Sequence record: PQ850620.1
From: Escherichia phage MeretOppenheim_Bas102
DNA length: 39,651 bases
Reading direction: 5' to 3' (one strand)
Position 1 is the first letter of the stretch; every line of letters begins with the position of its first letter. The notes below the pieces were generated by a model. It was not told the DNA's origin. It did not search any database and was given only the letters and a program-made list of their open reading frames with translations. Both the position numbers and the translations under genes were made by a program. Shown here piece by piece: positions 6,573-23,305 of the stretch.

Positions 6573-9224
6573 ATGAACACGATTAACATCGCTAAGAACG
6601 ACTTCTCTGACATCGAACTAGCTGCTATTCCGTTCAATACTCTGGCTGACCATTACGGTGAGCGTTTAGCTCGCGAACAGTTGGCCCTTGAGCATGAGTC
6701 TTACGAAATGGGCGAAGCACGCTTCCGCAAGATGTTTGAGCGTCAGCTTAAAGCTGGTGAGGTTGCGGATAACGCTGCCGCCAAGCCTCTCATTACTACC
6801 CTACTCCCTAAAATGATTGCACGCATCAACGATTGGTTTGAGGAAGTGAAAGCTAAGCGCGGCAAACGCCCGACAGCATTCCAGTTCCTGCAAGAAATCA
6901 AGCCGGAAGCTGTAGCTTATATCACCATTAAGACCACTCTGGCTTGCCTCACTAGCGCAGACAATACAACCGTTCAGGCTGTAGCAAGCGCAATCGGTCG
7001 AGCCATTGAGGATGAGGCTCGCTTCGGTCGCATCCGTGACCTTGAGGCTAAGCACTTCAAGAAAAACGTTGAGGAGCAACTCAACAAGCGCGTAGGGCAC
7101 GTCTACAAGAAAGCATTCATGCAGGTTGTCGAAGCTGACATGCTCTCTAAGGGTCTTTTAGGCGGTGAAGCGTGGTCTTCGTGGCACAAGGAAGACTCTA
7201 TTCACGTAGGTGTGCGCTGCATTGAGATGATCATCGAGTCAACCGGAATGGTCAGCTTGAACCGCCAAAACGCTGGCGTAGTAGGGCAAGACTCTGAGAC
7301 TATCGAACTCACACCGGAATACGCTGAAGCTATCGCAACACGTGCGGGTGCACTGGCTGGTATCTCTCCGATGTTCCAACCTTGTGTAGTTCCTCCCAAG
7401 CCTTGGACTGGCATTACCGGTGGTGGCTATTGGGCTAATGGTCGCCGCCCTCTGGCACTGGTACGTACCCACAGCAAGAAAGCACTGATGCGCTACGAAG
7501 ATGTTTACATGCCTGAGGTGTACAAAGCGATTAACATTGCACAAAACACCGCATGGAAAATCAACAAGAAAGTCCTAGCGGTCGCCAACGTAATCACCAA
7601 GTGGAAGCACTGCCCTGTAGAGGACATCCCAGCGATTGAACGCGAAGAACTCCCGATGAAACCGGAAGACATCGACACGAATCCTGAGGCGCTCACCGCT
7701 TGGAAGCGTGATGCTGCCGCTGTGTACCGCAAGGACAAGGCTCGCAAGTCTCGTCGTATCAGCCTTGAGTTCATGCTTGAGCAAGCCAATAAGTTCGCTA
7801 ACCATAAGGCCATCTGGTTCCCTTACAACATGGACTGGCGCGGTCGTGTTTACGCTGTGTCAATGTTCAATCCGCAAGGTAACGACATGACCAAGGGACT
7901 GCTTACGCTGGCGAAAGGTAAACCAATCGGTAAGGAAGGTTATTACTGGCTGAAAATCCACGGCGCAAACTGTGCGGGTGTCGATAAGGTTCCGTTCCCT
8001 GAGCGCATCAAGTTCATTGAGGAAAACCACGAGAACATCATGGCTTGCGCTAAGTCTCCACTGGAGAACACTTGGTGGGCTGAGCAAGATTCTCCGTTCT
8101 GCTTCCTTGCGTTCTGCTTTGAGTACGCTGGGGTACAGCACCACGGCCTGAGTTATAGCTGCTCTCTTCCGCTGGCGTTCGATGGGTCTTGCTCTGGCAT
8201 TCAGCACTTCTCCGCGATGCTCCGTGATGAGGTAGGTGGTCGCGCTGTTAACTTGCTGCCCAGCGAAACCGTTCAGGACATCTACGGGATTGTCGCTAAG
8301 AAAGTCAACGAGATTTTGCAAGCAGACGTAATCAACGGGACCGACAACGAAGTAGTTACCGTTACCGATGAGAACACTGGTGAAATCTCTGAGAAAGTCA
8401 AGCTGGGCACCAAGGCGCTGGCTGGTCAGTGGTTGGCTTACGGTGTTACTCGTAGTGTGACTAAGCGTTCAGTCATGACGCTGGCTTATGGGTCCAAAGA
8501 GTTCGGATTCCGTCAACAAGTGCTGGAAGATACCATTCAGCCAGCCATTGATTCCGGTAAGGGTCTGATGTTCACTCAACCGAATCAGGCTGCTGGATAC
8601 ATGGCGAAACTGATTTGGGAATCTGTGAGCGTGACGGTGGTAGCTGCTGTGGAAGCTATGAACTGGCTTAAGTCTGCTGCTAAACTGCTGGCTGCTGAGG
8701 TCAAAGATAAGAAGACTGGAGAGATTCTTCGCAAGCGTTGCGCTGTACATTGGGTGACTCCTGATGGGTTCCCAGTGTGGCAAGAATACAAGAAGCCTAT
8801 TCAGACTCGCTTGAACCTGATGTTCCTCGGTCAGTTCCGTCTACAGCCGACCATTAACACCAACAAAGATAGCGAGATTGACGCTCACAAGCAGGAGTCT
8901 GGCATCGCTCCTAACTTTGTACACAGCCAAGACGGTAGTCACCTGCGTAAGACTGTAGTGTGGGCACATGAGAAGTATGGAATCGAGTCTTTTGCACTGA
9001 TTCACGACTCCTTCGGGACCATTCCGGCTGACGCTGCTAACCTGTTCAAAGCTGTTCGGGAAACTATGGTTGACACCTATGAGTCTTATGATGTACTGGC
9101 TGACTTCTATGACCAGTTTGCTGACCAGTTGCATGAGTCTCAATTGGACAAAATGCCAACGCTTCCGGCTAAAGGTAACTTGAATCTACGTGACATCTTA
9201 GAGTCAGACTTCGCGTTCGCGTAA
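6573..9224 (+). CDS. 1: single-subunit DNA-directed RNA polymerase (T7 RNAP, gp1)
   Basis: 883-aa ORF MNTINIAKNDFSDIELAAIPFNTLADHYGERLAREQLALEHESYEMGEARFRKMFERQ...; unmistakable T7 RNA polymerase. Confidence 0.98.
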   Translation: MNTINIAKNDFSDIELAAIPFNTLADHYGERLAREQLALEHESYEMGEARFRKMFERQLKAGEVADNAAAKPLITTLLPKMIARINDWFEEVKAKRGKRPTAFQFLQEIKPEAVAYITIKTTLACLTSADNTTVQAVASAIGRAIEDEARFGRIRDLEAKHFKKNVEEQLNKRVGHVYKKAFMQVVEADMLSKGLLGGEAWSSWHKEDSIHVGVRCIEMIIESTGMVSLNRQNAGVVGQDSETIELTPEYAEAIATRAGALAGISPMFQPCVVPPKPWTGITGGGYWANGRRPLALVRTHSKKALMRYEDVYMPEVYKAINIAQNTAWKINKKVLAVANVITKWKHCPVEDIPAIEREELPMKPEDIDTNPEALTAWKRDAAAVYRKDKARKSRRISLEFMLEQANKFANHKAIWFPYNMDWRGRVYAVSMFNPQGNDMTKGLLTLAKGKPIGKEGYYWLKIHGANCAGVDKVPFPERIKFIEENHENIMACAKSPLENTWWAEQDSPFCFLAFCFEYAGVQHHGLSYSCSLPLAFDGSCSGIQHFSAMLRDEVGGRAVNLLPSETVQDIYGIVAKKVNEILQADVINGTDNEVVTVTDENTGEISEKVKLGTKALAGQWLAYGVTRSVTKRSVMTLAYGSKEFGFRQQVLEDTIQPAIDSGKGLMFTQPNQAAGYMAKLIWESVSVTVVAAVEAMNWLKSAAKLLAAEVKDKKTGEILRKRCAVHWVTPDGFPVWQEYKKPIQTRLNLMFLGQFRLQPTINTNKDSEIDAHKQESGIAPNFVHSQDGSHLRKTVVWAHEKYGIESFALIHDSFGTIPADAANLFKAVRETMVDTYESYDVLADFYDQFADQLHESQLDKMPTLPAKGNLNLRDILESDFAFA

Positions 9225-9869: not shown

Positions 9870-10892
9870 ATGATGAACATTAAGACTAGCCCATTTAAAG
9901 CCGTGTCTTTCGTAGAGTCCGCCATTAAGAAGGCTCTGGGTAACGCTGGGTATCTTATCGCTGACATCAAGTACGATGGTGTACGTGGGAACATCTGCGT
10001 AGACAATACCGCTAACAGTTGCTGGCTCTCTCGTGTATCTAAAACGATTCCGGCGCTGGAGCACTTAAACGGGTTTGATGTTCGCTGGAAGCGTCTGCTG
10101 AACGATGACCGTTGCTTCTACAAGGATGGCTTCATGCTCGATGGGGAACTCATGGTCAAAGACGTAGACTTCAACACAGGGTCCGGCCTACTGCGTACCA
10201 AATGGACTGACACTAAGAACCAAGAGTTCCACGAAGAGTTATTCGTTGAACCGGTACGTAAGAAAGATAAAGTTCCCTTTAAGCTGCACGCCGGACACCT
10301 TCACGTCAAACTGTACGCTATCCTCCCGCTGCACATCGTGGAGTCTGGAGAAGATTGCGATGTCATGACGTTACTCATGCAGGAACACGTTAAGAACATG
10401 CTGCCTCTGCTACAGGAATACTTCCCTGAAATCGAATGGCAAGCGGCTGAATCTTACGAGGTCTACGATATGGTGGAACTACAGCAACTGTATGAACAGA
10501 AGCGTGAAGAAGGCCATGAGGGTCTCATCGTGAAAGACCCGATGTGCATCTATAAGCGCGGTAAGAAGTCCGGCTGGTGGAAACTTAAGCCTCTTGAGGA
10601 AGCTGACGGCATCATTCAAGGTGTAAACTGGGGAACCGAAGGGCTTGCTAACGAAGGTAAAGTGATCGGCTTTAGTGTCTTGCTAGAAAGCGGGTGTGTA
10701 GTAGATGCTAATAACATCTCACGGGAACTGATGGATGAATTTACAGCTAACGTTAAAGAACATGGCGAGGACTACTACAATGGGTGGGCTTGTCAAATTG
10801 GATTTATGGAGGTAACACCTAATGGAAACCTTAGACATCCGTCCTTCACCTGCTTCCGAGGAACTGAGGACAATCCGAAAGAGAAAGTATAA
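9870..10892 (+). CDS. 1.3: ATP-dependent DNA ligase (gp1.3)
   Basis: 340-aa ORF MMNIKTSPFKAVSFVESAIKKALGNAGYLIADIKYDGVRGN... with adenylation motif KYDG; C-terminal region shorter than T7 ligase as I recall it. Confidence 0.93.
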   Translation: MMNIKTSPFKAVSFVESAIKKALGNAGYLIADIKYDGVRGNICVDNTANSCWLSRVSKTIPALEHLNGFDVRWKRLLNDDRCFYKDGFMLDGELMVKDVDFNTGSGLLRTKWTDTKNQEFHEELFVEPVRKKDKVPFKLHAGHLHVKLYAILPLHIVESGEDCDVMTLLMQEHVKNMLPLLQEYFPEIEWQAAESYEVYDMVELQQLYEQKREEGHEGLIVKDPMCIYKRGKKSGWWKLKPLEEADGIIQGVNWGTEGLANEGKVIGFSVLLESGCVVDANNISRELMDEFTANVKEHGEDYYNGWACQIGFMEVTPNGNLRHPSFTCFRGTEDNPKEKV

Positions 10893-11292
10893 GTATAACC
10901 CTGCGGCTCCTTCGGGAGTCGTTTCTGCCTCTGGTAAACCAATAGGTTACAAGCGGAAAGATGGGTATTGGCTACTTTCTTATGGAGGAAAGCATGTACT
11001 TGCACACAGGGTGGTCTGGATGCTTAACTTCGGTGTCATACCGGAGGGAATGGTGATAGACCACATTAACAGAAACCCTAGCGATAACCGTATAGAGAAT
11101 CTTCGAATAGTAACTCAATCAGCTAACCTAATGAACGTAGGCGTCCGGTCTCATTGTAGGAGTGGAGAGAAGTTTATCTCCCTTGATGTGAGAACCGGAC
11201 GTTTTTCCGTTCGTATCAGGAGAAAATCCTATGGCACATATGGTACTCTCGAAGAGGCTATAGCTGTGCGCGATGCTAATACGACTCACTAA
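10822..11292 (+). CDS. HNH homing endonuclease with C-terminal AP2-like DNA-binding domain, overlapping ligase 3' end
   Basis: 156-aa ORF with HNH motif IDHINRNPSDNRIENLRIVTQSANLMN and AP2-like tail (GRFSVRIRRKSYGTYGTLEEAIAVRDA); own RBS GGAGG at 10808-10812 inside ligase ORF; occupies the position of T7 gene 1.4; true start uncertain. Confidence 0.75.
   Translation: METLDIRPSPASEELRTIRKRKYKYNPAAPSGVVSASGKPIGYKRKDGYWLLSYGGKHVLAHRVVWMLNFGVIPEGMVIDHINRNPSDNRIENLRIVTQSANLMNVGVRSHCRSGEKFISLDVRTGRFSVRIRRKSYGTYGTLEEAIAVRDANTTH
10902..10930 (+). terminator. TE-like early terminator (for host RNAP)
   Basis: hairpin CGGCTCC-TTCG-GGAGTCG followed by TTTCTGCC immediately after the ligase stop; resembles the T7 TE element (GGCTCACCTTCGGGTGGGCCTTTCTGCG) as I recall it. 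Confidence 0.55.
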
Positions 11293-13491: not shown

Positions 13492-13946
13492 TGGCTCGTG
13501 TACAGTTTAAACAACGTGAATCTACTGACGCAATCTTTGTCCACTGCTCGGCTACCAAGCCAAGTCAGAATGTAGGTGTCCGTGAGATTCGCCAGTGGCA
13601 CAAAGAGCAAGGCTGGCTTGATGTGGGGTATCACTTTATCATCAAGCGTGATGGTACAGTAGAGGAAGGCCGAGATGAGATGGCTGTAGGCTCTCACGTT
13701 AAGGGTCATAACCACAACTCCATTGGTGTCTGCCTTGTAGGTGGTATCGACGATAAAGGTAAGTTCGACGCTAACTTTACGCCAGCCCAAATGCAATCCC
13801 TTCGCTCACTGCTTGTCACACTACTGGCTAAGTATGAAGGCGCTGTGCTTCGCGCGCATCATGATGTGGCACCTAAGGCTTGCCCATCGTTCGACCTTAA
13901 GCGTTGGTGGGAGAAGGACGAACTGGTCACTTCTGACCGTGGATAA
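13491..13946 (+). CDS. 3.5: lysozyme / N-acetylmuramoyl-L-alanine amidase, RNAP inhibitor (gp3.5)
   Basis: 151-aa ORF MARVQFKQRESTDAIFVHCSATKPSQNVGVREIRQWHKEQGWLDVGYHFIIKRDGTVEEGRDEMAVGSH... Confidence 0.95.
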   Translation: MARVQFKQRESTDAIFVHCSATKPSQNVGVREIRQWHKEQGWLDVGYHFIIKRDGTVEEGRDEMAVGSHVKGHNHNSIGVCLVGGIDDKGKFDANFTPAQMQSLRSLLVTLLAKYEGAVLRAHHDVAPKACPSFDLKRWWEKDELVTSDRG

Positions 13947-13947
13947 T

Positions 13948-13970
13948 TAATTGAACTCACTAAAGGGAGA
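13948..13970 (+). promoter_or_regulatory. T7 RNAP promoter phi3.8
   Basis: TAATTGAACTCACTAAAGGGAGA, the divergent phi3.8-type sequence, directly upstream of gene 4 here. Confidence 0.85.
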
Positions 13971-14002
13971 CCACAACGGTTTCCCTTTGTTCGCAATGTT
14001 GA

Positions 14003-15736
<1,734 letters not shown>

Positions 15737-15743
<7 letters not shown>

Positions 15744-15759
15744 ACTCACTAAAGGAGCT
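15737..15759 (+). promoter_or_regulatory. T7 RNAP promoter phi4.3
   Basis: TAATTAGACTCACTAAAGGAGCT; its +2 to +6 GGAG serves as RBS for the inserted HNH gene. Confidence 0.8.
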
Positions 15760-15765
15760 AACCAC

Positions 15766-16191
15766 ATGGACACTAACTTAGCGAGATTTGAAATATTCTT
15801 GAAGATTGATGGTGACTGCTGGTTGTTCACTGGTGGAAGGGCGCACTCCTATGGAGTCTTCTGGATGAACGGTAAGAATCACAAGGCACATAGGGCCGCC
15901 TTCGAACTTTATAACGGGAGGAAACCTAATGGCGTTATACTACATTCTTGTGATAATCCTTTGTGCTGCAATCCCGCTCATCTATCTGAGGGAACTCAGC
16001 TTGATAATATGGTGGACATGGTTAGAAAGGGACGCTCATTGAGAGGTACTAAGAATCCAATGTGCAAGTTTACTGATGCGGATGTTAAGTTCATCCGAGA
16101 GTCTACCATGAAGGTCAAGGATTTAGCTGCTTTATTCGGAGTAACCCGCCAAACAATAACTAAATGGAGGAGGCACCAATGTTCAAACTGA
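15766..16191 (+). CDS. free-standing HNH (His-Me finger) endonuclease inserted between promoter phi4.3 and gene 4.3
   Basis: 142-aa ORF MDTNLARFEIFLKIDGDCWLFTGG... with motif HSCDNPLCCNPAHL and C-terminal HTH-like TRQTITKWRR; paralogous to gp7.7 and to the intron ORF; not present at this locus in T7. Confidence 0.8.
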   Translation: MDTNLARFEIFLKIDGDCWLFTGGRAHSYGVFWMNGKNHKAHRAAFELYNGRKPNGVILHSCDNPLCCNPAHLSEGTQLDNMVDMVRKGRSLRGTKNPMCKFTDADVKFIRESTMKVKDLAALFGVTRQTITKWRRHQCSN

Positions 16192-16391
16192 TTAAGAAAT
16201 TAGGCCAACTGCTGGTTCGTATGTACAACGTGGAAGCTAAACGCCTGAACGATGAGGCTCGTAAAGAAGCCACACAGTCACGCGCTCTGGCGATTCGCTC
16301 CAACGAACTGGCTGATAGCGCATCAAATAAAGTTACAGAAGCTGCCCGTGTAGCAAACCAAGCACAACAGCTTTCCAAATTCTTTGAGTAA
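16179..16391 (+). CDS. 4.3: gp4.3
   Basis: 70-aa ORF MFKLIKKLGQLLVRMYNVEAKRLNDEARKEATQSRALAIRSNELADSASNKVTEAARVANQAQQLSKFFE; RBS GGAGGAGG lies inside 3' end of the upstream HNH gene. Confidence 0.85.
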   Translation: MFKLIKKLGQLLVRMYNVEAKRLNDEARKEATQSRALAIRSNELADSASNKVTEAARVANQAQQLSKFFE

Positions 16392-16747: not shown

Positions 16748-16753
16748 ATTATC

Positions 16754-17161
16754 ATGCGTGACCCTAAAGTTATCCAAGCAGAAATCGCTAAGTTGGAAGC
16801 TGAACTGGAGGACGTTAAGTTCCATGAGGCCAAGACCCGCTCCGCTGTTCACATCTTGAAGAACTTAGGCTGGACTTGGACAAGACAGACTGGCTGGGAG
16901 AAACAAGAAGTTAACAAGCTGAGCCACAAGGTGTTCGATAAAGACACTATGACCCACATCAAGGCTGGTGATTGGGTTAAGGTTGCCATGGGAGTTGTTG
17001 TTGGATACGGCTACGTCCGCTCAGTTAGTGGTAAATATGCACAAGTGTCATACATCACAGGCGTCACTCCACGAGGAGCAATCGTTGCCGATAAGACCAA
17101 CATGATTCATACAGTCTTCTTGACAGTTGTCTCGTATGAAGAGATTGTTAAGTCACGATAA
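16754..17161 (+). CDS. 4.7: gp4.7
   Basis: 135-aa ORF MRDPKVIQAEIAKLEAELEDVKFHEAKTRSAVHILKNLGWTWTRQTGW... downstream of phi4.7. Confidence 0.85.
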   Translation: MRDPKVIQAEIAKLEAELEDVKFHEAKTRSAVHILKNLGWTWTRQTGWEKQEVNKLSHKVFDKDTMTHIKAGDWVKVAMGVVVGYGYVRSVSGKYAQVSYITGVTPRGAIVADKTNMIHTVFLTVVSYEEIVKSR

Positions 17162-17179: not shown

Positions 17180-19138
17180 ATGATCGTTTCTGACATCGAA
17201 GCTAACGCCCTCTTAGAGAGCGTCACTAAGTTCCACTGCGGGGTTATCTACGACTACTCCACCGCTGAGTACGTAAGCTACCGTCCGAGTGACTTCGGTG
17301 CGTATCTGGATGCGCTGGAAGCCGAGGTTGCACGAGGCGGTCTTATTGTGTTCCACAACGGTCACAAGTATGACGTTCCCGCATTGACCAAACTGGCAAA
17401 GCTACAATTGAACCGTGAGTTCCACCTTCCCCGTGAGAACTGTATCGACACCCTTGTGCTGTCACGCTTGATTCACTCTAACCTGAAAGACACCGATATG
17501 GGTCTTCTGCGTTCCGGTAAGTTGCCCGGTAAACGATTTGGGTCTCACGCTTTGGAGGCGTGGGGTTATCGCTTAGGCGAAATGAAGGGTGAATACAAAG
17601 ACGACTTTAAGCGTATGCTTGAAGAGCAGGGTGAAGAGTACGTTGACGGAATGGAGTGGTGGAACTTCAACGAAGAGATGATGGACTATAACGTTCAGGA
17701 CGTTGTGGTCACTAAGGCTCTACTTGAGAAGCTACTCTCTGACAAACACTACTTCCCTCCTGAGATTGACTTTACGGACGTAGGTTACACTACGTTCTGG
17801 TCAGAATCCCTTGAGGCCGTTGACGTTGAACATCGCGCTGCGTGGCTACTCGCTAAGCAAGAGCGAAATGGATTCCCGTTTGACACGAAAGCAATCGAAG
17901 AGTTGTACGTAGAGTTAGCTGCTCGCCGCTCTGAGTTGCTCCGTAAATTGACCGAAACGTTCGGCTCATGGTATCAACCTAAGGGTGGCACCGAAATGTT
18001 CTGCCATCCGCGAACAGGCAAGCCACTGCCTAAATACCCTCGCATTAAGACACCTAAAGTTGGTGGTATCTTTAAGAAGCCTAAGAACAAGGCACAGCGA
18101 GAGGGCCGTGAGCCTTGCGAACTTGATACCCGCGAGTACGTTGCTGGCGCTCCGTATACTCCAGTTGAGCACGTAGTGTTTAACCCTTCGTCTCGTGACC
18201 ACATCCAGAAGAAACTCCAAGAGGCTGGATGGGTCCCCACGAAGTACACCGATAAGGGTGCTCCTGTGGTGGACGATGAGGTACTCGAAGGAGTACGTGT
18301 AGATGACCCCGAGAAGCAAGCTGCTATCGACCTCATTAAAGAGTACTTGATGATTCAGAAGCGAATCGGACAGTCTGCTGAGGGAGACAAGGCATGGCTC
18401 CGTTACGTTGCCGAGGACGGTAAGATTCATGGTTCTGTTAACCCTAATGGAGCAGTTACGGGTCGTGCGACCCATGCGTTCCCCAACCTTGCGCAAATTC
18501 CGGGTGTACGTTCTCCTTATGGGGAGCAGTGCCGTGCTGCTTTTGGCGCTGAGCATCATTTGGATGGGCTAACTGGTAAGCCTTGGGTTCAGGCAGGTAT
18601 CGATGCATCCGGTCTGGAGCTACGCTGCTTAGCCCACTTTATGGCTCGCTTTGATAACGGTGAGTACGCCCACGAGATTCTTAACGGTGACATCCACACT
18701 AAGAACCAGATGGCTGCTGAACTGCCTACCCGTGATAACGCCAAGACGTTCATCTACGGGTTCCTGTATGGTGCTGGCGATGAGAAGATTGGGCAGATTG
18801 TTGGTGCTGGTAAAGAGCGCGGCAAGGAACTCAAGAAGAAATTCCTTGAGAACACCCCAGCTATTGCAGCACTACGCGAGTCTATCCAACAGACACTTGT
18901 CGAGTCCTCTCAGTGGGTAGCAGGTGAGCAACAAGTCAAGTGGAAACGCCGCTGGATTAAAGGTCTGGATGGTCGTAAGGTACACGTTCGTAGTCCTCAC
19001 GCTGCCTTGAATACCCTGCTCCAATCCGCTGGTGCTCTCATCTGCAAACTGTGGATTATCAAGACCGAAGAGATGCTCGTAGAGAAAGGCTTGAAGCACG
19101 GCTGGGATGGGGACTTTGCGTACATGGCATGGGTGCAT
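17180..19138 (+). CDS. 5: DNA polymerase (gp5), exon 1 encoding residues 1-653
   Basis: Family A polymerase with 3'-5' exonuclease domain ([26 protein letters not shown]...); reading frame ends ...[11 protein letters not shown] then runs into 7 aberrant codons and a stop at 19160-19162 unless spliced. Confidence 0.9.
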
Positions 19139-19739
19139 AAACTATTTCATTGTGCACATTAAATCTGGTGAACTCGGTGAAACCCTAATGGGGCAATACC
19201 GAGCCAAGCCATAGGGAGGATATATGAGAGGCAAGAAGTTAATTCTTGAGGCCACTGAGACTGGCTGTATCATCCCTACGTCACACAAACTTAATGCTGA
19301 TGGTTATTTCAGAAAGAAAACCAATGGCGTCTTGGAGATGTATCACAGAACGGTGTGGAAGGAGCATAATGGAGAAATACCTGAAGGCTCCGAGATAGAC
19401 CATAAGTGTCGCAATAGGGCTTGCTGTAACATAGAGCATTTACAGATGCTTGAAGGTACAGCCCACACTGTTAAGACCAATCGTGAACGCTACGCAGACA
19501 GAAAGGAAACAGCTAGAGAATACTGGCTGGAGACTGGATGTACAGGCCTAGCACTCGGTGAGAAGTTTGGTGTGTCGTTCTCTTCCGCTTGTAAGTGGAT
19601 TAGAGAATGGAAGGCGTAGAGACTATCCGAAAGGAGTAGGGCCGAGGGTGAGACTCCCTCGTAACCCGAAGCGCCAGACAGTCAACTCAAAGACTGATGA
19701 TATAGTCCGACACTCCTAGTAATAGGAGAATACAGAAAG
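19139..19739 (+). mobile_element. group I self-splicing intron (inferred) interrupting gene 5 at motif C
   Basis: 601-nt insertion starting after exon U19138 and ending with G19739; GTGCAC (19152-19157) pairs with exon end GTGCAT (19133-19138) giving P1 with U-G wobble at the splice site; TTTCAT (19146-19151) complements exon 2 start ATGAAA (19741-19746) = P10; GACTAT (19621-19626)/ATAGTC (19702-19707) candidate P7; exon frame restored exactly. Confidence 0.8.
19224..19619 (+). CDS. intron-encoded HNH (His-Me finger) homing endonuclease
   Basis: 131-aa ORF MRGKKLILEATETGCIIPTSHKLNADGYFRKK... with motif EIDHKCRNRACCNIEHL, own RBS GGGAGGA 4 nt upstream; lies wholly inside the inferred intron. 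Confidence 0.8.
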   Translation: MRGKKLILEATETGCIIPTSHKLNADGYFRKKTNGVLEMYHRTVWKEHNGEIPEGSEIDHKCRNRACCNIEHLQMLEGTAHTVKTNRERYADRKETAREYWLETGCTGLALGEKFGVSFSSACKWIREWKA

Positions 19740-19895
19740 GATGAAATCCAAGTAGGTTGCCGTACCGAAGAGATTGCTCAGGTTGTCATTGAGACTGCAC
19801 AAGAGGCAATGCGCTGGGTAGGAGACCACTGGAACTTCCGGTGTCTTCTGGATACCGAAGGTAAGATGGGTCCTAATTGGGCCGTATGTCACTGA
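19740..19895 (+). CDS. 5: DNA polymerase (gp5), exon 2 encoding residues 654-704
   Basis: in-frame continuation DEIQVGCRTEEIAQVVIETAQEAMRWVGDHWNFRCLLDTEGKMGPNWAVCH matching the conserved C-terminus of T7 DNA polymerase; spliced product 704 aa. Confidence 0.88.
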   Translation, partial: DEIQVGCRTEEIAQVVIETAQEAMRWVGDHWNFRCLLDTEGKMGPNWAVCH

Positions 19896-22912: not shown

Positions 22913-23305
22913 ATGGAGAATTGTATTGAGTGGACTAAAGGTACTAATCAGAAAGGTTATGGACGTAAGTGGGTGAACGGTAAACTGGTGTCTGCACATC
23001 GTCACGCTTACGAAGAAGTTCATGGTCCAATCCCACATGGTCTTGTTGTAATGCACCTCTGTGACAATCCTCGATGTTATAATGTGGAGCACTTGACTCT
23101 TGGGACACATGCGGACAATTCAGATGATAAAGTTCGGAAAGGTAGACAAGCCAGAGGAGAAACTCTCAGCAAGAAGCTAACAGCGAGCGACGTTTTGGAA
23201 ATCCGTAGCTTGACACTACCACACACCGAGATAGCCAAGATGTACGGTGTAAGTCAATCAACTATAACTCGCATAATTAGACGAGATACATGGAGGCATA
23301 TCTAA
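22913..23305 (+). CDS. 7.7: gp7.7 HNH (His-Me finger) homing-endonuclease-like protein
   Basis: 130-aa ORF MENCIEWTKGTNQKGYGRKWVNGKLVSAHRHAYEEVHGPIPHGLVVMHLCDNPRCYNVEHL...; canonical T7 position between 7.3 and portal gene. Confidence 0.85.
   Translation: MENCIEWTKGTNQKGYGRKWVNGKLVSAHRHAYEEVHGPIPHGLVVMHLCDNPRCYNVEHLTLGTHADNSDDKVRKGRQARGETLSKKLTASDVLEIRSLTLPHTEIAKMYGVSQSTITRIIRRDTWRHI

Follow-up and report, generated by a model that had tools for sequence, protein, structure and literature searches.

The open reading frame that lies between promoter phi4.3 and gene 4.3 of Escherichia phage MeretOppenheim_Bas102 is best explained as a free-standing HNH (His-Me finger) homing endonuclease gene that is specific to the gene 4/gene 4.3 junction of T7-like phages. 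We assign this reading a probability of roughly 0.7. Support comes from the gene and its domains, from its conservation and patchy distribution among relatives, and from its precise position between flanks that are intact. The window that was analyzed (39,651 nucleotides; sequence record PQ850620.1) is the complete, circularly permuted genome of this T7-like phage, which belongs to the genus Teseptimavirus. The features at the gene 4/gene 4.3 locus and the two HNH paralogs at 19224-19619 and 22913-23305 are located on the plus strand.

A promoter scan of the window yielded 16 matches to T7-type promoters, compared to 0 expected by chance. The gene order comprises the RNA polymerase gene (6573-9224), the gene 4 primase/helicase, gene 4.3, and a split gene 5. 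Over 25 kb, the window is ~92% identical to T7, phiA1122, C5, N30, and JeanTinguely. The nearest relative around the HNH locus is vB_EcoP_LNA7 (LNA7), with 95.5% identity. Gene 4 (14018-15718) is full length and matches the Pfam families Helic-prim_T7_N, Toprim, and DnaB_C. It is followed by the predicted class II promoter phi4.3 (TAATTAGACTCACTAAAGGAGCT; 15737-15759, promoter positions -17 to +6). The initial annotation had named phi4.3 as the promoter ahead of the HNH reading frame, and homology to the T7 and 13a promoters confirmed this. The sequence TAATTAGACTCACTAAAGGAGCT matches the annotated phi4.3 promoters of both phages base for base, which sets the transcription start (+1) at G15754. 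Because the upstream spacer and the promoter are homologous to those of insert-free phages, phi4.3 is native here and did not arrive with the insert. Promoter positions +1 to +4 read GGAG (15754-15757), which in T7 is the Shine-Dalgarno sequence of gene 4.3. In the window, gene 4.3 (16179-16391) is intact and matches Pfam DUF5471 with E = 2.6e-49. A search of the whole window against Rfam at the gathering threshold gave no match.

The HNH open reading frame (15766-16191) encodes 141 amino acid residues followed by a stop codon; the length of 142 residues given initially had included this stop codon. Its ATG is located at promoter position +13, that is, 12 nt past +1 and, as noted before, 7 nt after promoter position +6. 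The promoter-embedded GGAG sits 8 nt upstream of this ATG, in agreement with the earlier proposal that it would serve as the Shine-Dalgarno sequence of the HNH gene. The start of gene 4.3 in T7 is 11 nt past the +1 of phi4.3, and the HNH reading frame is thus additional DNA here. All six carriers of the clade to which the window belongs keep the ATG at 15766 together with its upstream GGAG. A longer reading frame starting at TTG (15727-16191, 154 residues), which is the form annotated in N30, was rejected because it begins inside the promoter and has no ribosome-binding site. We also considered a hairpin that would gate translation, as in T4 I-TevI, and found no convincing RNA structure around the HNH start (z = 0.03 for positions 15690-15800, and z = -1.65 for the promoter-initiated leader at 15754-15830).

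At its 3′ end, the HNH reading frame overlaps the first 13 nt of gene 4.3 (16179-16191), as described initially. A candidate replacement Shine-Dalgarno sequence for gene 4.3, GGAGGAGG, lies within the terminal Trp-Arg-Arg codons. Its presence had been correctly recognized, but at coordinates (16167-16174) that have to be corrected to 16166-16173. This element contains the right GGAG copy (16169-16172), which is positioned 6 nt before the gene 4.3 ATG. The terminal HNH codons TGG AGG AGG re-form a GGAG-type ribosome-binding site for gene 4.3, and the flanking genes are therefore undamaged. The HNH reading frame has no stop codon of its own within the insert and continues, out of frame, into gene 4.3 until it reaches a TGA. 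Since the stop codon is taken from the flanking DNA, the C-terminal tails vary among lineages. The residues past Trp-Arg-(Arg/Lys) are HQCSN, HTCSN, HHVQTD, or HHV, depending on the lineage.

Alignments to T7-like genomes, an approach suggested initially, placed the boundaries of the insert at 15758-16172. This segment of ~415 bp is missing from T7, 13a, phiA1122, JeanTinguely, NC-A, and CHRF_10027. The empty sites of these phages read CACTAAAGGAG-ACAC(A/C)(C)-ATGTTCAAA, and the occupied sites read CACTAAAGGAG-[CTAACCACATG...AAATGGAGGAG]-(G/A)CAC..ATGTTCAAA. The GGAG direct repeat at both ends, with its left copy formed by promoter positions +1 to +4, leaves the boundaries uncertain by 4 nt. 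Either insertion or microhomology-mediated deletion could have produced such a junction, and we infer the direction of the event (insertion versus deletion). The layout causes minimal disruption, as had been claimed: genes 4 and 4.3 are full length, GGAG is duplicated at the ends of the insert, and the supply of a gene 4.3 ribosome-binding site by the end of the HNH gene recurs in relatives.

Among 225 phage records with a match to the surrounding 1.4-kb region, 7 carry the segment. These records correspond to five phages, and ~97% of the records are without the segment. The carriers at this locus among GenBank Teseptimavirus genomes are only LNA7, JB01, AH67C600_Q5, N30, and C5. The other matches listed are two-piece alignments around a ~415-bp gap, with 71% coverage. 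Judged by its sequence, the IMG/VR contig L068 is a near-isogenic empty site: its left flank is of the JB01 type, including an extra 47 bp, and is joined directly to ...GGAGACACACCATGTTCAAA, with the gene absent. The JB01-type left-flank haplotype thus occurs both with the insert (JB01) and without it (L068). Local alignments of the HNH gene to the empty-site spacers of T7, BA14, and ETEP21B scored no better than those of shuffled sequence, i.e., no gene remnants were detected in these spacers. In IMG/VR, there were only three close relatives, all of them genomes that are also GenBank records. A database of 5.8 billion proteins contained only seven clusters at 72%-88% identity. This presence/absence polymorphism, together with the clean empty sites and intact flanks, supports the earlier claim of an insertion at the phi4.3/4.3 junction. 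Presence in all close relatives combined with core-like evolution had been named as evidence against this claim. Most relatives lack the gene, and the second part holds insofar as the gene evolves at about the rate of gene 4 where it is present. Base composition was considered as a sign of foreign origin and was rejected, as the difference in GC content is mild (44.1% for the insert vs 48.2% for the genome, 7.7th percentile).

The encoded protein matches Pfam HNH_3 (PF13392) over profile positions 2-46 of 46, with 46.3 bits (cut-off 24.8) and E = 3.3e-12. It also matches PHROG endonuclease and HNH families (best E = 1.5e-28), and a protein database search returned 75 homologs at E ≤ 1e-10. The motif HSCDNPLCCNPAHL and the C-terminal tail TRQTITKWRR, both reported initially, were found in the translation. 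The catalytic core spans residues 60-81 (15943-16008) and contains H60, C62, D63, N64, C67, N69, H72, and N81. In an alignment of 53 sequences, C18, Y29, H60, C62, C67, L73, and R90 are invariant, and H42, D63, N64, N69, H72, and N81 are conserved in at least 90% of the sequences. By analogy with HNH enzymology, from which the roles of the core residues are taken, H60 is the predicted general base, and N69, H72, and N81 would have structural or metal-binding roles.

The AlphaFold2 model of the protein has a mean pLDDT of 92.7, with values below 50 solely at residues 139-141. It consists of an N-terminal beta-rich region, a beta-beta-alpha core, and three C-terminal helices. The beta-beta-alpha metal core is formed by strands 57-60 and 73-76 and helix 78-88. 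The three C-terminal helices (residues 104-140; 16075-16185) form a helix-turn-helix (HTH) DNA-binding module in the model. Over residues 114-137, Pfam matches to helix-turn-helix families are weak, and that to HTH_23 (20.6 bits) is under its cut-off. The model predicts a small monomer, in which the C-terminal helix-turn-helix would provide sequence recognition. A phmmer search against PDB sequences gave only chance-level matches, with no I-HmuI match at E ≤ 1, and fold comparison was therefore required. In this comparison, the nearest solved folds were the homing endonucleases I-PpoI and I-HmuI. At the level of sequence, the open reading frame is an intact HNH/His-Me finger gene with a C-terminal HTH that encodes a putative nuclease.

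In a tblastn search, all relatives with at least 70% identity were located at the gene 4/gene 4.3 locus, and matches with at most 51% identity were paralogs elsewhere. In every lineage looked at (11 of 11 ortholog contexts), the essential gene 4 is located immediately 5′ of the HNH gene, in three junction architectures relative to phi4.3. Orthologs at the same phi4.3/4.3 site as in the window are found in N30 and C5 (annotated in GenBank as "putative HNH endonuclease"; AYD80141.1 in N30), AH67C600_Q5 ("HNH endonuclease motif protein," UAW06981.1), JB01 (hypothetical protein QOV06343.1), and LNA7 (unannotated). Their amino acid identity to the HNH protein is 87%-96.5%, and their overlap with gene 4.3 is alike. 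Together with the window, they form two sub-clades, one with the window and LNA7 and the other with N30, C5, AH67C600_Q5, and JB01. These sub-clades are separated by a dS of ~0.5 and differ in right-junction sequence and C-terminal tail.

Relatives in other T7-like lineages share 71%-78% identity, and their genes are located before the promoter or replace the spacer. The copies in Kluyvera phage Kvp1 ("gene 2.8, probable HNH endonuclease," ACJ14561.1) and Escherichia phage pO103, both of the genus Berlinvirus, are 71% identical to the HNH protein and resemble it in domain layout and in location right after gene 4. In contrast to the window, the gene in Kvp1 and pO103 is upstream of the promoter, where its start overlaps the final gene 4 codons and the TAA that ends it falls within the -17 to -13 region of the promoter (AACAATAAGACTCACTAA). 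It stands in place of the 65-80 bp spacer that is seen in BA14 and ETEP21B. The label "gene 2.8" in Kvp1 is a matter of family resemblance and not of position. In the Berlinvirus search, 3 of 233 matching records covered at least 80% of the query, and Kvp1 and pO103 were the only carriers. In L014 and L015-L017, which are metagenomic T7-like contigs, the gene shares an overlap with the end of gene 4, and gene 4.3 adjoins it without an intervening promoter; in contig L013, a degenerate promoter-like sequence precedes it. The predicted ribosome-binding site for gene 4.3 is supplied by the terminal Trp-Arg-Lys (WRK) codons, TGGAGGAAG, in L014 and by TAGGAG across the stop codon in L015. Since the ends of the L014 and L015 genes act alike, the replacement ribosome-binding site appears to be a recurring trait of the 3′ end of the HNH gene. 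Orthologs are thus already annotated as HNH endonucleases in N30, C5, AH67C600_Q5, and Kvp1. In the literature, we found no characterization of the enzyme at the gene 4/gene 4.3 locus or of its close relatives.

The insert is preceded by a divergent mosaic block (15400-15757), which was delimited by sliding-window identity and alignment and comprises the 3′ end of gene 4 and the intergenic spacer. From ~15400, identity to all compared phages except LNA7 is 74%-88%, compared to ~95%-98% further upstream. Directly downstream of the insert, identity is back to 92%-96%. The block is common to the window and LNA7, and the other carriers are without it. Phage nuclease genes occur at boundaries of genetic exchange (PMC10448857), and the position of the HNH gene at the edge of the divergent block fits this pattern. 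Among the first 11 genomes, the sequence TCTAGCTACACTGG and the type of gp4 tail appeared to be linked to the gene. A carrier-specific flank as a signature of immunity or co-conversion was rejected after TCTAGCTACACTGG was found in seven gene-free T7-like IMG/VR contigs, including L068. The gp4 tail haplotype that is common to carriers is also present in the gene-free phage CHRF_10027. None of the flanking haplotypes is confined to carriers, so a clear co-conversion tract is not seen, which would place the likeliest target at the insertion point itself.

Identities of the HNH protein and gp4, respectively, are 71% and 70% for Kvp1, 76% and 77% for L014, 72% and 77% for L015, and 78% and 85% for L013. 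HNH divergence thus follows gp4 divergence across genera, a pattern compatible in equal measure with mobility and with vertical residence over a long time, and the gene is an old resident of the locus rather than a newcomer from beyond the T7 group. Within Teseptimavirus, the HNH protein is 90.5% identical, versus 97.4% for gp4 and 98.6% for gp4.3. An alternative explanation builds on this age and proposes that an early T7-like ancestor already had the gene on the 3′ side of gene 4, and that it was kept for a benefit to the phage and was lost from most lineages by deletion between the GGAG repeats, with no homing today. Possible benefits would be the cutting of competitor phage or host DNA, or the processing of replication intermediates beside the replisome genes. 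Besides the parallel divergence, this explanation is consistent with strong purifying selection (dN/dS mostly 0.1-0.2), with a locus that is always on the 3′ side of gene 4, and with direct repeats that would permit precise deletion. However, carriers make up ~3% of the matching records in each of two genera, which would require dozens of independent scar-free losses or an empty allele spread by recombination, and the empty-site spacers hold no remnants of the gene. T7 and most relatives thrive without the gene. The three junction architectures relative to the promoter are more easily obtained by re-insertion, and the reading frame has no stop codon of its own in the clade of the window. Taken together, we consider it rather unlikely that the gene persists in this way without homing. 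The three phi4.3 junction types and the borrowed stop codon are signs of re-insertion.

A further possibility, speculative and given little weight here, is that the recognition site is the phi4.3 promoter plus the 4.3 leader itself, a late class II T7 promoter with flanks unique to it. The enzyme would then act as a promoter-linked gene drive, with marker exclusion and diversification of the 3′ end of gene 4. This idea is based on the positions of the gene in three lineages, where it is immediately 3′ of the promoter, immediately 5′ of it, or replaces it. If it is true, co-infecting T7-type competitors would be impaired in the expression of replication genes or have their DNA cut, and repeated repair would be what diversifies the final ~100 codons of the primase/helicase gene to such an unusual degree. 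These codons include those of the acidic C-terminal tail of the primase/helicase, which contacts DNA polymerase.

A relic that is decaying or inactive, or one whose product acts solely as an HTH DNA-binding protein, is very unlikely. Homing genes usually decay once they are fixed, which is the argument for such a relic, but all 10 orthologs are full length with intact catalytic residues, and the nuclease core is modeled with confidence along its whole length. Moreover, dN/dS is far below 1 (0.07-0.20 for ortholog pairs with measurable dS, except for the three closest pairs, with 0.26-0.28), and the gene is under purifying selection. That the reading frame arose by chance within a variable intergenic spacer, a view for which nothing more than the small size speaks, can practically be dismissed, as it is refuted by the Pfam and PHROG matches, the 75 homologs, the purifying selection, and the confident fold.

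As a homing endonuclease, the HNH protein would operate as follows. The gene is located between the +4 position of phi4.3 and the 4.3 leader, so transcripts from phi4.3 or read-through transcripts would carry the nuclease reading frame first. Such transcripts would be made by T7 RNA polymerase from phi4.3 and upstream class II promoters, with GGAG as the presumed ribosome-binding site. In a co-infecting relative, the enzyme would recognize the phi4.3/4.3 junction where it is uninterrupted. In a mixed infection with a gene-free relative, by analogy with phage HNH homing enzymes such as I-HmuI and I-PfoP3I, it would nick or cut the empty site of that relative, at or close to CACTAAAGGAG|ACAC..ATGTTCAAA. 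The enzyme would probably be monomeric and nick or cut DNA in the manner of other phage HNH homing enzymes, which are site-specific nickases and whose insertion can disrupt their own target site (PMC3428280). T7 recombination would mend the break with the carrier genome as template, and the gene would be copied into the recipient along with some flanking DNA. Carrier genomes would be protected because the insert splits the target site.

Taken alone, the gene represents a well-known class without standing out in it, and its importance is slight. It would nevertheless be a clean and compact natural example of a selfish nuclease gene that occupies the gap between a promoter and the gene it drives and leaves both unharmed. 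The economy of this example is that the promoter-embedded ribosome-binding site is re-used, the last codons give a new one, and the stop codon is borrowed from the neighbor. Because near-isogenic empty sites exist, T7 homing could readily be studied by experiment at this locus. The gene also coincides with a boundary of recombination where the essential helicase gene ends and is therefore relevant to mosaicism in therapeutic and laboratory T7-like phages.

T7-like phages carry several small HNH genes, namely 2.8, 3.8, 5.3, 7.7, and the gene 5 intron reading frame. The nearest paralog in the window is a gp7.7-like gene (22913-23305; Pfam HNH_3 and HTH_23). The paralogy to gp7.7 proposed in the initial annotation is supported by 45% identity over 112 residues (E = 5e-29). 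The relationship to the HNH reading frame within the gene 5 intron (19224-19619; Pfam HNH_3), also proposed there, stands as membership in the same Pfam family, but it is weak, with 25% identity and a pairwise E of 2e-8. The common pattern given for these proteins begins with G-IP-G, which does not hold for the HNH protein encoded at 15766-16191, where the sequence reads G-KP-G. The window contains a fourth HNH_3 gene, which is gp2.8-like (10822-11292) and had not been listed before. The T7 gp7.7 family shares with the HNH protein the layout of HNH_3 and C-terminal HTH, as well as the motif H-x-C-D-N-P-x-C-x-N-x-x-H-L. It differs in its locus between genes 7.3 and 8 and is thus paralogous, not orthologous.

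Among characterized enzymes, I-HmuI from the DNA polymerase intron of SPO1 (PDB 1U3E) resembles the HNH protein solely in fold and in the layout of HNH core and C-terminal HTH, whereas structural identity is just 15% and sequence homology is not detectable. The conserved cysteines of the HNH protein are I-PpoI-like. Related phage HNH nicking homing endonucleases that can serve as analogs are I-HmuII, I-BasI, I-PfoP3I, and I-TslI. The free-standing Seg/Mob endonucleases of T4 (e.g., MobE) are encoded in intergenic positions near essential genes, are patchy among relatives, and spread by cleavage of nearby sites and co-conversion of flanks (PMC2790892, PMC2988022). They belong to different sequence families and to a different phage group, and their homing has been demonstrated experimentally, whereas that of the HNH gene is proposed. 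It is in lifestyle that the HNH gene at the gene 4/gene 4.3 junction resembles the T4 Seg/Mob genes.

Four HNH_3 genes were identified in the window genome by Pfam: a gp2.8-like gene (10822-11292), the gene located between promoter phi4.3 and gene 4.3 (15766-16191), an ORF in the gene 5 intron (19224-19619), and a gp7.7-like gene (22913-23305). The lysozyme gene ends at 13946 and gene 4 starts at 14018 in the window, which leaves no room there for a homologue of gene 3.8. No HNH ORF of the gene 5.3 type was seen between gene 5 and gene 6 of the window.

The DNA polymerase gene 5 (17180-19895) is in two parts. Exon 1 reads to ...AWVH, followed by stop-containing sequence near 19136-19162, and the coding sequence continues with exon 2 (DEIQVGCRTEE...NWAVCH), which runs from near 19740 to near 19895. 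The HNH ORF at 19224-19619 lies within the sequence of ~600 nt that separates these two exons. This split agrees with the joined gene 5 annotations in phages 13a and JeanTinguely. It also agrees with the already published gene 5 intron of T7-like phages (cited in PMC3428280). When the whole window was searched with Rfam, no group I intron was reported at the gathering threshold.

Sliding-window identity was also compared on both sides of the phi4.3 region. In gene 4.7 (16750-17100), the identity to LNA7 falls to 67-82%, although LNA7 is otherwise the closest relative, and every other compared phage is 89-98% identical here. A second local mosaic boundary is therefore located here. The start of gene 4 together with its upstream spacer (13950-14200) is 95-100% identical to N30 and 69-83% identical to T7, 13a, and phiA1122. 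The equivalent region is occupied by HNH gene 3.8 in T7, so 13950-14200 is another mosaic boundary, adjoining a site that carries a nuclease gene in relatives.

Phage JB01 and the IMG/VR contig L068 have in common ~47 bp of extra sequence after the gene 4 stop and before phi4.3, located at about 1925-1975 in JB01 (L006) and reading GACTTCAAGTGCCCTTGTGGTAATTGGGACTG(T/C)GATGG.... A related, Cys-rich-looking stretch was observed at the corresponding position in the T3-like contigs L072 and L074. The extra stretch of JB01 and L068 could represent either a conserved small ORF or the gene 4.2 tail.

The Berlinvirus phage pO103 (L009) carries an intact HNH gene of 147 codons at 2471-2914. The GenBank record of pO103 lacks this gene and shows only a 123-nt "hypothetical protein" at its 3' end. 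In the Logan contigs L015, L016, and L017, which represent one metagenomic T7-like lineage, the gene 4 neighbourhood contains three HNH_3 genes in a stretch of about 3.7 kb. One precedes gene 4, one follows it (the orthologue of the 15766-16191 gene), and one lies just before gene 5. The replication genes of these contigs have nuclease genes on both sides, an arrangement that resembles the "HEG island" pattern already published (PMC10448857).
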